Assembly (NCBI GenBank): GCA_963788655.1
Contig: CAWBHS010000047.1
Span: forward strand, 1-43,960
DNA length: 43,960 bases
Reading direction: 5' to 3'
DNA from: an uncultured Verrucomicrobiae bacterium
GTDB lineage: Bacteria > Verrucomicrobiota > Verrucomicrobiia > Limisphaerales > JAFGQR01
Positions within the stretch are counted from its first letter, which is position 1. Every line of letters begins with the position of its first letter. Made by a program: the position numbers and the translations under genes. The notes beneath the pieces are model-generated. The model saw nothing but the letters and a program-made list of their open reading frames with translations. It had not been told where the DNA came from and ran no database searches. Shown in pieces: positions 1 through 31,968 of the stretch.

Positions 1-19
1 AGCGCTCTGTTTAGGCCAC
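1..19 (-). other. Start of third attC site (R'' box), truncated by window edge
   Basis: Minus strand GTGGCCTAAAC overlaps the stop codon of 11..424. It complements the start of the same cassette (GTTAGGCCAC, 444-435) apart from one extra A. Confidence 0.6.
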
Positions 20-424
20 ATTGTCATGCCTCTTCAAAATCTGATAAAACTCAAACCAAAGCAATCCGGCGATGGCTACACAGCAAGCCAAAAGAATCAA
101 AGGCATGTGCCGAGGAATGGCTGAATGAAGCTCCGGCGGCAAGCCGACAAACTGGAATGCAAAATAACCGCCCGCCAATATCACAAAGACGCCGCCTGAA
201 CCCAAAGCAACCAGCTTGGCTCTGCGCTGCAATCGCGGTGAGAGCACTGAAAAGCCGAACGTGACAAGACCACCTGCGATGCCAATGACTGCAACCAACA
301 GCAACCGATGCGGCTGCTCCGAAAAATAGTGAATCGTGTCGTTGGCAATAAACTCGCGGATGGTGTCCACAACGGCGAAAACCGCGAACGCCACGACCAA
401 AATAATGCCAATCAATCTTTTCAT
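11..424 (-). CDS. Integron cassette gene, hypothetical membrane protein (~4 TM)
   Basis: 137-aa ORF with four hydrophobic segments. ATG lies 13 nt after GTTAGGC and the stop lies inside the R'' box. Confidence 0.8.
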   Translation of the reverse strand: MKRLIGIILVVAFAVFAVVDTIREFIANDTIHYFSEQPHRLLLVAVIGIAGGLVTFGFSVLSPRLQRRAKLVALGSGGVFVILAGGYFAFQFVGLPPELHSAIPRHMPLILLACCVAIAGLLWFEFYQILKRHDNVA

Positions 425-437
425 ATGCGGTCGAGTG

Positions 438-563
438 GCCTAACGACCGAACTGAGCGACAGCCGCCGACGGTGACGGCGCAGCGCACGAGGTGCTCCTG
501 CACTGCCGCCCGGCGTCGAGCGGAGAAGCTGGGCGGCTGTTCGCTCCAGTGACCTGGTTAGGC
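438..563 (-). other. attC site (126 bp)
   Basis: GCCTAAC (563-557, overlapping the TAA of 558..899) to GTTAGGC (444-438). Internal arms CTGAGCGACAGCCGCC / GGCGGCTGTTCGCTCCAG pair with extrahelical bases. Confidence 0.9.
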
Positions 564-899
564 GGGTCGTGAGAACACTCTGGACCAGTAATCATAAGAG
601 AAAAACAGAAGTGTGTGTAGCACCTGAATACTAAGAATCCAAAGAAATATCCTGTCGTGTCTGCTTGCGACTTTGCGAACGAGAACGCGCATGAGCCTCA
701 CCAACGAATAAATGCTGAGCAAAGCAAAACTTAATGCTGAGACCGCAAGCACGCAGAGAAGAACTGTGCCTCCGCTGTGCATCAATGAGAAGCCAAGCAT
801 CTGTGGGCCACTGAAAGCGGTAAGGACATACATCTCGAAACTCGTCTCCAAAAAAAATGGAGCGGATAATGCCGCCAAGATGTAGCCGAGTTTGGTCAT
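558..899 (-). CDS. Integron cassette gene, hypothetical membrane protein (~3 TM)
   Basis: 113-aa hydrophobic ORF between two attC sites; stop codon inside R''. Confidence 0.8.
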   Translation of the reverse strand: MTKLGYILAALSAPFFLETSFEMYVLTAFSGPQMLGFSLMHSGGTVLLCVLAVSALSFALLSIYSLVRLMRVLVRKVASRHDRIFLWILSIQVLHTLLFFSYDYWSRVFSRPA

Positions 900-912
900 A
901 CGTGCTGATGCC

Positions 913-1022
913 GCCTAACGACAAGACCACCGACAGCCGCGAACTATGAAAAAGCCACAACACGAAACGCCAGTCTCAACTGACAGGCGGGTCGGCTGTT
1001 CGGTGCGTCGCTTGGTTGGGGC
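913..1022 (-). other. attC site (~110 bp)
   Basis: Minus strand GCCCCAAC to GTTAGGC. Arms CACCGACAGCCG / CGGCTGTTCGGTG resemble those of the 438-563 site. Confidence 0.85.
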
Positions 1023-1099
1023 TTTTGATGATTGGCTGCCACGAAACAAAACTATCCGATGGTGCCTGATGATAACAGCCGTGGGATGGGTGATGCAAA

Positions 1100-1390
1100 T
1101 CATAGCAATAATCCGGCGAGCCCTATGAGAATGCTCGCGATTGCAATAACCTTGAAAAGAAGCTGCGTCTTTTGGTTCTGCTCGTTCAGCGCATGGATAA
1201 CCTGAGCGGTCTGAATATGGTTGATTGTCAGCGCCTGAATAATAGCAACATGACGAATCCGATCATTGACGATGCCCTCAGTGGCGAGAAAATGGAGACA
1301 CGCTTGCAGTGTCTCAGGCGATGCGGAGTAGATACTCCGGTCCTCAAACATCTTTTTAATGGTGTCAAAAGACATGGACTGCGTGGTCAT
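1100..1390 (-). CDS. attI-proximal cassette gene, hypothetical protein with C-terminal TM anchor
   Basis: 96-aa ORF starting 7 nt after GTTTGGGC, with a hydrophobic C-terminus. Confidence 0.75.
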   Translation of the reverse strand: MTTQSMSFDTIKKMFEDRSIYSASPETLQACLHFLATEGIVNDRIRHVAIIQALTINHIQTAQVIHALNEQNQKTQLLFKVIAIASILIGLAGLLL

Positions 1391-1397
1391 GTGTGTT

Positions 1398-1440
1398 GCC
1401 CAAACAGTATTAATAAACGAAAAATTTTCGGTTTATCCGA
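1398..1440 (-). other. Candidate attI site
   Basis: Minus strand TCGGATAAACCGAAAATTTTTCGTTTATTAATACT-GTTTGGGC lies directly before the first cassette and between the array and intI. It has no attC-type stem. Confidence 0.65.
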
Positions 1441-1579
1441 TTTGGTGCGTTAACGTTCCCGCCCCCGTCTTGCCGCGTCAAGCCCAAAGTCGATTTTTCT
1501 TGCCTCCCCGCCCGCTTAGTTGTTGACTCCCAACGGTAGGTGTCTTGGGGATCCGAGTCGGATTTGCCAGGGAGCCTTC

Positions 1580-1610
1580 CGGATAAACCGAAAACTTTTC
1601 GGTTTATCCG
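1580..1610. promoter_or_regulatory. Perfect 31-bp palindrome upstream of intI remnant; putative protein-binding site
   Basis: CGGATAAACCGAAAA-C-TTTTCGGTTTATCCG has 15-bp arms. A degenerate copy sits at 1413-1440. Confidence 0.55.
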
Positions 1611-1641
1611 ACGACGATTGGACCATCAATTGCGAAAACCA

Positions 1642-1912
1642 ATGGCAACAATCCACTTCCCCAATTGGCCCGAGTGGTTGGCCAACGCCGACCTCCCCGA
1701 AGGCCACCAACGCAGTTTCGCCATCACCCTCCACTGGTACCTCAACTTCTGCCGTCGGGCTCGCGGCGAGGTCAACCATGACTCGGCCCGCGACTTTATC
1801 GCCTGGGCCCAGGCCCACCCCAACGATGCCCGCCTGGAAAACGGCGTTCCTCACGGTCCTCCGGCGCCGGCAGTATTCGTATCGTAAGGAGCAAACCAGC
1901 GATTTGTATTGA
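1642..1912 (+). pseudogene. intI: Integron integrase remnant (N-terminal part only; frame change and 3' truncation)
   Basis: MATIHFPNW...WYLNFCRR...ARDFI, then in another frame WKTAFLTVLRRRQYSYRKEQT, which matches the IntI N-terminal R-x-x-H-Y-S-x-R-T-E-x-x-Y motif. There is no tyrosine-recombinase catalytic domain. The fragment is divergent from the cassettes. Confidence 0.75.
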
Positions 1913-1989
1913 GGATTGAGAGTTGAGGGACAGAATCCGGAAGTCGTCAGGGATTTGCGCCGGCCACTTAGCCGAAAGAATTCAGTTCC

Positions 1990-2141: not shown

Positions 2142-2539
2142 TTTTTCCTGAATAATCACGGCTAAGCCAGCCGTTTTCGGGACCACCGACGCGGGCGCCC
2201 CGCATGAGGCGGTTCCCTTGCAGACCCAACAGCAGCGTGAAATTGAGTGGTGTTTGGTGAATGCTTTGTAACCAAGGGAGTTGGGCCGGCGGGTTCATGT
2301 TTGACAAGCGGGCCGTGGTTCAAAATATTGCACCGCCCAGTTTTGAAACGCACGCGAATCAACCAAGTCACCATGTCGGTGACTGATGCCAACAACCGGA
2401 TGCCAGCTCCGGTAGAGCGGTGCTTTGCCCTGGTCCAGATATGCTGCCGACGGCGAAACCGCCGAGACGAAGCGGCGGAGCTGATGCCCACTGACCGGGT
2501 TCTGCCTCCTTGCGGCGGCGGCCAGGTGCCCGATTTCCA

Positions 2540-4012
2540 GTGAAACGATTCCGCTTCTGGCAACCCTTCCTGCTGGTGACGCTGGGCACATCCTGCGTCA
2601 CATCGCCGCCGCCGCAAACCGGACGGGCCGGCGTGGTAATTCCCGCTAAATGGACGGCGGGCGCGGCATCGTCCGCCCCGATTCAAGAGCGGTGGTGGGA
2701 GAGTTTCGGCTCGAGCAATCTGAATACGCTGGTCACCGAAGCGTTGCAGCACAACTATGATCTGCCAATTGCCGCCGCCCGCCTCGAAGCCTCGCTGGCG
2801 CAGGCCCGAATTGCCGGGGCGGATTTGTATCCTTCCCTGAACGCCGGATTTGACGCCCAACGCAGCAAACGGAATTTCATCGGCTTTCCCATTCCCGGCC
2901 AGAATGGCAAGGTGCTCAGCAGTTTTTCCACGACCTACGGCATTTCCCTCAATACCGCGTGGGAAGTGGATGTCTGGGGACGCATCCGCTCCGGCGCGCG
3001 GGCGGCGCTGGCGGAAGTGCAGGCCAGCGAAGCCACGTTCGAAGCCGTGCGGCAATCCATCGCGGCCCAAACCGTGAAAGGTTGGCTGGCGGTCAGGGAA
3101 GCCCGCCTCCAGGTGTCGCTGGCCGAAAACACAGTGCAGAGCTTCCGCGTCACCGCCGAACAGAATCGACGGCGGTACGAACGGGGGCTGCGCGACGCGC
3201 TTGATTTGCGGCTGGCGCTCAATGCCCAGGCCGCGGCGGAAGCCACCCTGGCCCAAAACCGCGCCACTCTCGACCGTGCCACCCGACAACTGGAAGCCTT
3301 CCTCGGACGTTATCCGGCGGGCAAGGCCAAGGGAACGGAGCTGTTGCCCGAGGCGCGCCTGGAGATTCCCCCCGGCTTGCCTTCCGAACTGCTGACGCGC
3401 CGACCGGACTTGGTGGCGGCCGAACGGCGGCTGGCGGCGGCGGATCAACGGTTGGCCCAGGCGAAAGCGTCACTCTTTCCGCGCCTCAGCCTGACCGCCA
3501 GCGGCGGCACGAGCACCCAGGAGTTGGCGGACCTGGTTTCCAGCGACTTCAGTGTGTGGACGCTGGCCGCCAATTTGGCACAACCCATTTTTGAAGGCGG
3601 TCGTCTGCGCGCGGGAATCAAGTTGTCCCGGGCCGGCGTGCGCGAAGCGCTGGCCGCCTATTCGCAGGCAGTGTTAAAGGCGTTCACCGAGGTGGAGACC
3701 AGCCTGGCGGCGCTCCGGTTGCTGGCCGAACGGGAAGAACATTTGCGCGAAGCACTGGATCAAGCGCGGGCGGCGTTGCGGTTGGCGGAAGACCGTTACG
3801 CGGCGGGATTGGAAATTTTCCTGACCGTGCAGGAAGCCCAGCGCCGCGTGTTCAACAATGAAACGCAATTGCTGGCGGTCCGCCGTCAGCGTCTCGAAAC
3901 GCAGGTGGACTTGCACCTGGCGTTGGGGGGCGGGTTTGGGGCGGCGGGAACGAATGTGGACGAGCAACCCAATGCCGGACAGCCATTGTCAAAGACGGAC
4001 ACACCGCAATGG
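2540..4012 (+). CDS. RND efflux outer membrane factor lipoprotein (NodT/OprM family); 3' end uncertain
   Basis: GTG start, lipobox LGTSC, and motifs WWESFG, WEVDVWGRIR, GLPSELLTRRPD, LALGGG. No in-frame stop occurs before the MFP. Confidence 0.85.
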
Positions 4013-4042
4013 ATGATCGACTCGTTAATGGCCTCCGAACGT

Positions 4043-4188
4043 CGCGAAGCGTGGGGAGGGCGTGGAGCTTGCTCCCGCTTTCTTTTGAAGAAGGGCGGTC
4101 AACTGACAACGCAACGCACGCCAGAATTTGATCGTCGTTCACCACGCGAAAGCGCCGGCAAGCCGGACGCACTCCAAACGCTGGCGCG
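4043..4188. repeat. REP-doublet/MITE-like element, family A
   Basis: GCGTGGAGCTTGCTCCCGCTTTC ... GAAAGCGCCGGCAAGCCGGACGCACTCCAAACGCTGGCGCG. Related copies at 16510 and 38377. Confidence 0.8.
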
Positions 4189-4257
4189 AAAATTTGCAAG
4201 CCGTTCCAAAAGGGTGCTAGCCCTGAAATTACACACCCCGCTTAAAACGCCGACAGC

Positions 4258-4330
4258 CGTAGCCGCCGACGTGAGGAGGCGGAGCGCGGCCGGGTTGCAT
4301 CAGGTCCGCCTCCTCACGTCGGCGGCTACG
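4258..4330. repeat. GTAG-type REP doublet, family B
   Basis: GTAGCCGCCGACGTGAGGAGGCGG ... CCGCCTCCTCACGTCGGCGGCTAC is a perfect inverted pair. A copy lies at 29473. Confidence 0.85.
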
Positions 4331-4363
4331 CGTTGCAAACGCATTCATAGACATCTGGCAGTG

Positions 4364-5572
4364 ATGAAATCTCGTGTTCAATTTTTTCTGGTGCCTCTGG
4401 TGCTCGTGCTGGGCGTGGCAGTGGCGGCGTTCATGATCGCCAATCGCAAGCCGGTGCAGCCAAAACCTCCGGAGGTGATTTTGCCGCTGGTCCGGGTGCT
4501 GACCGTGGCACCGACCAATGCGCAACTCGAAGTCCGGAGCCAGGGCACCGTCGCGCCGCGCACGGCCATCGATCTTTCGTCGGAGGTGACCGGTAAGGTG
4601 GCGTCGGTGGCGCCATGCATGGCGGCGGGCGGATTCTTCGAAGAAGGCGAGGTGCTGGTAACGATTGATCCGCGCGATTTCGAGTTGTCCGTCGTGCAAG
4701 CTCGGGCCCAAGTGGCGGCGGCGGACGCGCGCCTGGCCCGGGAACAGGCCGAAGCCGAAATTGCCCGCCAGGAATGGGATGATTTGAGCCCCGGCAAAAA
4801 TCCGTCGCCCCTGGTGCTGCGGGCCCCGCAGCTCAAGGAGGCGCAAGCGGCGCTGGCCTCCGCGCAAGCCGCGTTGGAGGTGGCGGAACGCGACCTGGAA
4901 AAGACCAAGATTCGCGCGCCATTCGCCGGGCGGGTGTTGAGCGAAACCGTGGATGTCGGGCAGTTTCTGAACCGCGGTACTGCGATCGCCCGGCTTTACG
5001 GGGCCGATTATGCGGAGGTGCGCCTGCCGGTACCGGTTGAGGATATGGCCTTCCTTGATTTGCCGTTGGCGTATCGCACAGACACCAATTCCTCTCCCGG
5101 ACCAACCGTGCACTTGCGCGGCCAGTTTGCCGGGCGGGAAAACGTGTGGTCCGGTCGCGTCGTCCGCACGGAGGGCGAAATCGATCCGCAGAGCCGCATG
5201 CTGACGGCGGTGGCGCAAGTGGCCGATCCGTTCGCCCGGAAGGCGGACAGTGAACTGCCGCCGTTGCCGATGGGCTTGTTTGTCGAAGCGGTCATCATGG
5301 GGCGCCGGGTGGAGAAGGTGTTCATGGTGCCGCGCATTGCGTTGCGCAGCGGCGACCGGGTGTTGGTGGTGGACGAAGAAAACAAATTGCGCTTTCGCAA
5401 CGTGACCATCCTGCGCCCGGAGCGGGACCAAATCCTTCTGCGCTCGGGCCTGGCTACGGGCGACCGGGTGGTGCTGTCGCCATTGAACACCCCTGTGGAC
5501 GGCATGGCGGTACGGACCTTCGACGAAATTACGGAGGCCGCCCCGCAGGAGTCGGAAACCAGCGCGCGATGA
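4364..5572 (+). CDS. RND efflux periplasmic adaptor (membrane fusion protein)
   Basis: MKSRVQFFLV N-terminal TM, SEVTGKV lipoyl half, hairpin, IRAPFAGRV. Overlaps the permease start (ATGA). Confidence 0.9.
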   Translation: MKSRVQFFLVPLVLVLGVAVAAFMIANRKPVQPKPPEVILPLVRVLTVAPTNAQLEVRSQGTVAPRTAIDLSSEVTGKVASVAPCMAAGGFFEEGEVLVTIDPRDFELSVVQARAQVAAADARLAREQAEAEIARQEWDDLSPGKNPSPLVLRAPQLKEAQAALASAQAALEVAERDLEKTKIRAPFAGRVLSETVDVGQFLNRGTAIARLYGADYAEVRLPVPVEDMAFLDLPLAYRTDTNSSPGPTVHLRGQFAGRENVWSGRVVRTEGEIDPQSRMLTAVAQVADPFARKADSELPPLPMGLFVEAVIMGRRVEKVFMVPRIALRSGDRVLVVDEENKLRFRNVTILRPERDQILLRSGLATGDRVVLSPLNTPVDGMAVRTFDEITEAAPQESETSAR

Positions 5573-31588: not shown

Positions 31589-31696
31589 AGGATTGATTGG
31601 AGTTGAAACCATGGATGCCCCGGAAGGCCATGGAGAACAGCTTGGCCGTGACGATTCAATGCGACGAATCCGCAAGAACCTTGGACAACTCCATTC

Positions 31697-31764
31697 AACC
31701 CCAAAGGCACGAAGCGCGCAAAGATGCTGCCAACATCCTTTGCGCGCTTCGTGCCTTTGCGGTT
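31697..31764. repeat. Inverted-repeat hairpin element between convergent genes
   Basis: AACCCCAAAGGCACGAAGCGCGCAAAG ... CTTTGCGCGCTTCGTGCCTTTGCGGTT. Confidence 0.7.
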
Positions 31765-31968
31765 AATCAGGTCACTCGCCCACGTCACAACGTCTGGACT
31801 CGATTCTCGTCACCCAGGTTGCAGCCCGCTGCCCTCGGTTTCTTCGTGGTTGCCCGACCGGTCAGCACGAGATTCCCCAATCGCAAAAGTTTTCCAACGC
31901 CCCCCTTCAACTCTTCAACGCGTTAACCCTTCAAGCGCGGTCCCGGCTCTGCCCCGTTGGTGGAGTTC

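Follow-up and report, generated by a model that had tools for sequence, protein, structure and literature searches.

An integron platform with attI and cassettes kept and the integrase gene probably lost in place in an uncultured Verrucomicrobiae bacterium

The window that we analyzed, a whole stretch of 43,960 nucleotides, is the entire contig C47 in the assembly of an uncultured Verrucomicrobiae bacterium (8.96 Mb in 115 contigs; completeness 86%, contamination 5.6%). Its left end is very probably an integron platform that has kept attI, two complete attC-bounded cassettes and a damaged third, with an integrase gene (intI) that was likely destroyed in place. As no full-length intI with catalytic residues lies by the array, the locus is not a complete integron; it has the composition that defines a CALIN, with an intI pseudogene. 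Decayed integrons are already well described, and the locus is a clean example of the known route from integron to CALIN. An earlier note, based on the letters alone, had seen here an integron caught in transition. Loss of intI in place from a complete integron is supported by the occurrence of the same platform beside intact intI elsewhere and by a sequence pattern from the 3′ flank of the gene, whereas "caught in transition" is not supported, since nothing dates the loss. The features of the locus are:

1 to 16, minus strand: start of the third attC (R″ at 16-10, spacer, first part of L″), truncated where the contig ends
11 to 424, minus strand: cassette 3 ORF, 137 aa, hydrophobic, no known family, stop codon within R″
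438 to 563, minus strand: attC of cassette 2, 126 bp, crossover between G444 and T443, 61.4 bits with model R1 (E 5.7e-12)
558 to 899, minus strand: cassette 2 ORF, 113 aa, no known family, stop codon within R″
913 to 1022, minus strand: attC of cassette 1, 110 bp, crossover between G919 and T918, 67 bits with model R1 (E 3.1e-13)
1100 to 1390, minus strand: cassette 1 ORF, 96 aa, no known family
1398 to 1456, minus strand: putative attI region, with crossover between G1405 and T1404, half-degenerate box at 1439-1412 and conserved short palindrome at 1456-1448
1580 to 1610, no strand: perfect 31-bp palindrome with 12-bp invariant arms and a 7-bp variable middle, a predicted protein-binding box
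1642 to 1818, plus strand: intI remnant part 1, residues 1-59, most of the extra N-terminal domain
1817 to 1897, plus strand: intI remnant part 2, residues about 116-142 in a different frame, covering the beginning of the normal SAM_4 domain
1887 to 1931, plus strand: likely 3′ end of intI and downstream flank, brought beside codon ~139 by a ~900-bp deletion

The three minus-strand ORFs, one per cassette, all run in the same direction; the first stops 78 bp ahead of its R″, and the second and third stop inside theirs. No above-cut-off match was found in Pfam for any of them, nor in NCBIfam for that of cassette 3. The cassette 1 ORF has one other homologue (66%), the cassette 2 ORF has five (43-78% identity), and the cassette 3 ORF has 54 others (40-84% identity), two of which are labeled DMT-like permease at source, the others being hypothetical or unnamed. 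A search of sequencing runs matched one DNA run, with a 195-base piece of cassette 3 only, and listed no RNA run.

The attC sites were identified with R1, a covariance model whose 20 source sites all lie outside the window (6 from this genome and 14 from others) and for which we set the base pairing from the alignment. Paired cells make up 94.8% of that alignment, as against 72.5% when shuffled and 24-45% when slid, and 13 of the 20 pairs show two-sided change (covariation). On the expected strand, R1 recovered both sites proposed earlier, at 913-1021 (E 3e-13) and 438-563 (E 6e-12); the next-best independent match inside the window has an E of 0.08. Both window sites have the marks of an attC, namely AAC/GTT cores, paired L boxes, and two bases left unpaired in the bottom strand. 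The first shares 83-85% identity with counterparts on C9 and C100, and the second 88.7% with one on C100. When folded, 438-563 was clearly more stable than shuffles (z -4.1/-3.7, about -4 on either strand); the result for 913-1022 was weaker (z -1.7 to -1.9). A de novo scan for attC patterns was noisy, missed 438-563, and was kept only for picking 18 seeds. An Rfam search of the whole window gave no match.

The earlier description of the attC cassettes as intact is true of two attC sites and not of the third, in which R″ (16-10) reads GCCTAAA. Either a substitution or an additional A has broken its AAC at a distance of 10 bases from the end of the contig, and the break may reflect decay or, so near that end, an error. 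The bases after this R″ match attC starts on C22, C59, and C62. The proposal to extend left of position 1 meets the end of the contig, since the window holds all of C47, with no sequence to the left; the array leaves the contig on that side. C48, however, starts within an attC at the family-consensus point where C47 stops, a fit that is unique among 230 contig ends, and we think it somewhat probable that C48 continues C47. Within the attC on C48 sits a 1.7-kb element that encodes an IS110-family transposase and divides the site in two; were C48 to continue C47, the third attC would have been damaged twice over. This element (L078:100-1806) is inserted backwards, and at the same attC position on C27, C49, and C59; in this it resembles the known IS1111-attC group (PMC11187229).

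The start of each cassette had also been said to complement its own R″ beyond the core, as expected of circular cassettes inserted by IntI. All the strings quoted for this are found in the window at the positions given. For cassette 2, the start (919-911) is an exact complement of 565-557, reaching six bases past the GTT/AAC core. For cassette 1, described as nearly pairing, GTTTGGGC (1405-1398) and GCCCCAAC (1022-1015) agree at 7/8 positions, and at 4/5 bases beyond the core. In cassette 3 the complementarity takes in seven flanking bases, but the two quoted strings differ in length (10 and 11 bases) and the AAC core is broken. Among 59 cassettes genome-wide, taken from consecutive attC sites <1.5 kb apart after more distant or core-less pairs were dropped, the mean was 4.08/5 matching bases, compared with 2.50 when shuffled (sd 0.11), and none of 10,000 shuffles reached the real mean. 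A 5/5 match was found in 30/59 real pairs of R″ and start, against 2.9% of random pairs from the same genome. The footprint is thus real, but generic: nearly all cassettes carry it, and it is the normal mark of cassette insertion.

Judged by conservation across ten aligned platforms, an attI heads the array. Eight platform copies in the assembly agree up to the G of the crossover and diverge past the next TT, and in an alignment of ten platforms drawn from six genomes or contigs (five from this genome and five from other genomes) conservation likewise ends at the G and T of the crossover. The attI candidate is thereby substantiated, with its crossover mapped to the point where the copies stop agreeing. 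Our literature search found no description of attI sites for this integrase group. In the platform copy at C56:104-135, 7-8 bases are missing just 5′ of the crossover, and cassettes still follow. A consensus scan of the minus strand found no sigma-70-like cassette promoter (Pc); the TTGACG at 1481-1476 is common to three copies and is without a clear -10. Two LexA motifs were sought in 1301-1700 and neither is present.

The perfect palindrome at 1580-1610 ends 31 bp ahead of the intI start and, with its half-degenerate copy at 1439-1412, about 170 bp away, flanks the intI-attI interval. It is kept beside intact intI at loci L049 and L077. The full palindrome has seven copies in the assembly, and the candidate identity of a host-wide operator was rejected because all seven are at integron platforms. 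A hairpin role for the copy at attI was likewise dropped, as it folds no better than shuffles (z -1.4). The available parts of PMC8565304 and PMC8876359 hold nothing on such boxes.

The integrase had been called destroyed, and indeed only 86 of 438 IntI residues align (80% identity overall to the IntI on C49) and the catalytic domain is absent: the gene has lost four-fifths of its length, likely via two deletions. The remnant had been placed at 1826-1912; its actual span is larger, 1642-1897. From an ATG at 1642, divergent from the cassettes, residues 1-59 are identical to the 438-residue C49 IntI at 47 of 59 positions. A first deletion of about 165 bp, with short shared bases at the junction, shifts the frame, and 1817-1897 then matches C49 residues 116-142 (21/27 identical), where similarity ends. 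The Phage_int_SAM_4 similarity expected at this position proved only partly visible: neither 1817-1909 nor 1826-1909 alone matches in Pfam, and 1817-1897 aligns to the C49 IntI, in which the SAM_4 match begins at residue 125. Nor did Pfam or NCBIfam give an integrase match for the remnant pieces, which are too short for them, so direct alignment was used. A second deletion, of ~900 bp, appears to have taken the catalytic domain and spared the 3′ flank of the gene; the C49 gene has 904 bases beyond the break point. A 15-base pattern at 1916-1931 has only one other occurrence in the assembly, immediately past the end of an intI on C59, which points to an internal deletion, and a related 10-mer occurs at eight places, one of them behind the end of intI on C93. 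The pattern sits in a short-repeat family with 12 looser matches, and having been defined after both sequences were seen, it is good, not final, evidence. Private changes in remnant codons 1-59 are few and mostly silent, so that decay is visible in the deletions, not in point changes, and is undatable.

An intact IntI of 428-499 residues adjoins the same platform at L049, L077, G055, and G083, which fixes the ancestral layout. On the favored reading, the cassettes would have arrived as circles at the window attI while intI was intact, and the internal deletions of ~165 bp and ~900 bp would then have removed the remaining gene. The array would probably be frozen for insertion and still able to lose cassettes to another integrase.

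It is unlikely, in our estimate, that the platform instead arrived already truncated and that a sister integrase added the cassettes in trans, in which case no complete integron ever stood here. The assembly holds 46 attC clusters, this locus among them, of which eight have this platform upstream (at least eight platform copies), and 5′-only intI pieces are many. Moreover, the remnants C39, C49b, and C59a (C39:300-480, C49:288090-287900, C59:7350-7540) have one common interruption near codon 64, a pair of inverted repeats and then identical following sequence, from which it follows that broken copies have been duplicated or converted. The deletions of the window copy, however, are absent from every other platform copy compared, the shared codon-64 interruption is absent from the window, and the 3′ flank of the gene is seemingly kept. 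To the right of the locus lies an efflux operon, and none of 11 loci with homologues of the neighboring efflux gene has an integron within 1.5 kb, as a platform that came from elsewhere would have it; but these homologues are at most 56% identical and belong to other families, the best match in the genus mate being 34%, and therefore say little about the ancestral site. In this operon, an outer-membrane efflux gene and an HlyD-type gene form a single open frame of 1020 codons (2510-5572), with a repeat-like stretch between the two parts; this is a fusion or a chance read-through. Short dispersed inverted repeats with many genome copies lie at 1990-2150 and 31693-31768.

Very improbable, too, is an origin of the broken gene and scattered copies in errors of assembly or binning. 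The assembly is of metagenome type, with the contamination given above, and the array reaches a contig end; yet both deletion junctions are unique and lie 1.8 kb inside the contig, the first with short shared bases, and the platform-bearing contigs are at genome-typical GC (0.586-0.600). Least credible of all is that the truncated N-terminal piece is still made as a box-binding repressor, the remnant being a regulator: codons 1-59 are open, with their few and mostly silent changes, and several remnants in the genome retain just the N-terminal domain, but the piece stops short of the predicted fourth helix (residues 64-84) and enters an unrelated frame, and its sister remnants have stop codons in this piece.

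Loss of intI in place thus remains our preferred reading, and it was further suggested that the array could still be mobilized in trans. A genome search for a full-length intI gave no intact gene of the same type, but one intact short IntI on C69 (314 residues; 274.8 bits against a TIGR02249 cut-off of 265). This IntI shares 37% identity with the long type, and the attI-like sequence that comes after it is a different one and lacks the boxes. All long-type copies found in the assembly are broken, mostly to fragments; since the assembly is incomplete and contaminated, it may lack an intact same-type integrase that the organism has, and some platform copies are possibly another strain's. The C49 long intI has one internal stop, one copy on C59 has a stop and an inserted GIY-YIG gene, and a further IntI on C59, the third, is interrupted by a stop close to the beginning. 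In the available text of PMC2095811, attI is recognized by its own integrase and attC sites are shared. On that ground, excision of the window cassettes by the C69 IntI is plausible, through attC x attC recombination, and insertion at this attI is doubtful.

Several side observations concern these broken genes. The small GIY-YIG gene that interrupts the C59 intI (C59:67904-68190, L005) has short inverted ends, and at C49:288883 that same codon of the C49 intI shows a stop and an insertion of three bases, which look like the footprint of a GIY-YIG-type element. Tandem intI copies lie at C59:66134-68725, C49:288078-289677, and C81:135046-135509, the second copy starting with the right half of the palindrome, which makes the box look like a duplication breakpoint. 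A REP-like palindrome (C49:289410-289370 and L049:4320-4375), of which this genome has 59 exact-pattern copies, falls in frame within the linker that joins the two N-terminal domains of the long IntI. Among named relatives of the integrase, the nearest belongs to an uncultured Verrucomicrobiae genome, and two collection scans returned one locus each. With R1, this genome yields 78 matches among 86 scored candidates and 40 genomes of the same order yield 0-48, a gap that is overstated because R1 was built partly from sites of this genome.

Residues 1-85 of the long IntI have no Pfam family match. The predicted structure of C49 residues 1-85 has four helices (pLDDT 85.9), and the model aligns with the core-binding domains of XerD (Z 9.7, rmsd 1.9 over 74 residues) and a Vibrio integron integrase (Z 9.3). 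In this comparison, the best 17 of 17 matches are tyrosine recombinases or their kin, with Z values that are modest for a helical domain. Foldseek gave nothing at an E of 0.001 or better, its best 12 matches all being Cre or Vibrio integron integrase, and a language-model search indicated SAM-like integrase domains. The structural Z values and the language-model search make it likely that the long type carries two core-binding (SAM-like) domains in tandem.

The boxes also appear to vary with the integrase. Among 14 loci in other genomes, five have 4-5 half-sites of the palindrome kind, eight more distant ones have none of these but 2-5 related half-sites at the same positions, and one has no half-site of either kind; both kinds are also absent from five loci in this genome that are of the short type or of other types. 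The loci with palindrome half-sites form one branch (99/99) of an integrase tree of 14 sequences, two truncated loci having been left out. That the box sequence before intI and beside attI changes with the integrase subgroup is a lead, not proof, as the motifs were defined on the same sequences and there is a single change on the tree. We tentatively propose a model in which the remnant comes from a Verrucomicrobiota group of tandem-domain integrases whose extra domain reads the dedicated box; such an integrase would shut down expression of intI by itself, LexA-free, and would use the box beside attI as an accessory site to hold attI. Binding of the box by an integron-specific host factor is also possible. 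The window resembles attI1, with its accessory direct repeats DR1 and DR2 (PMC9892861), in having extra repeated sites upstream of the crossover, but the unit here is a palindrome, present once by attI and once before intI, and the integrase type here has an extra domain. DR1 and DR2 are bound by IntI1. In the open-licence literature, we found no account of an IntI that represses itself or has its core-binding domain duplicated, and our literature search found nothing on the extra-domain fold or boxes of the long IntI. Nemergut et al. (2008; PMC2426708) described, in the part that was available, a "clade 15" IntI from Deltaproteobacteria with an undefined gene fusion, which is likewise group-conserved and about 120 residues longer than other IntI; the fold of the extra part and a linked DNA box are not given in that part.

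Broken integrase genes are themselves familiar: the same text has intI broken in about one third. Cury et al. (2016; PMC4889954), as far as the available text goes, list intI loss among the origins of CALINs, discuss mobilization by another integron, and report half of CALINs on IntI-encoding replicons. The window is alike in that its attC sites number at least two, that the array has no working intI beside it, and that an IntI is encoded elsewhere in the genome; it differs from their CALINs in its preserved attI, mapped by comparison. Their screen with the C-terminal domain found pseudogenes near 15/279 CALINs, and a 5′-only remnant like the one here would escape it. The inactivated chromosomal integrons of Xanthomonas (bioRxiv 10.1101/2025.06.18.660453, available part) show intI stops, frameshifts, and large deletions, with the array left in place as in the window, but consist of one ancestral locus and a few CALINs, in contrast to the many attC clusters and repeated platforms of this assembly.

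A single locus alone has little significance. It does provide a mapped attI for an integrase group for which we found none described. In addition, 5′-only intI remnants slip past catalytic-domain screens, so that intI loss may account for more CALINs than the 15/279 recorded. If the extra domain binds the boxes, this would be a new mode of controlling and aiming an integron integrase, and since the boxes would outlast gene loss, many dead platforms could be docked by a single surviving integrase.
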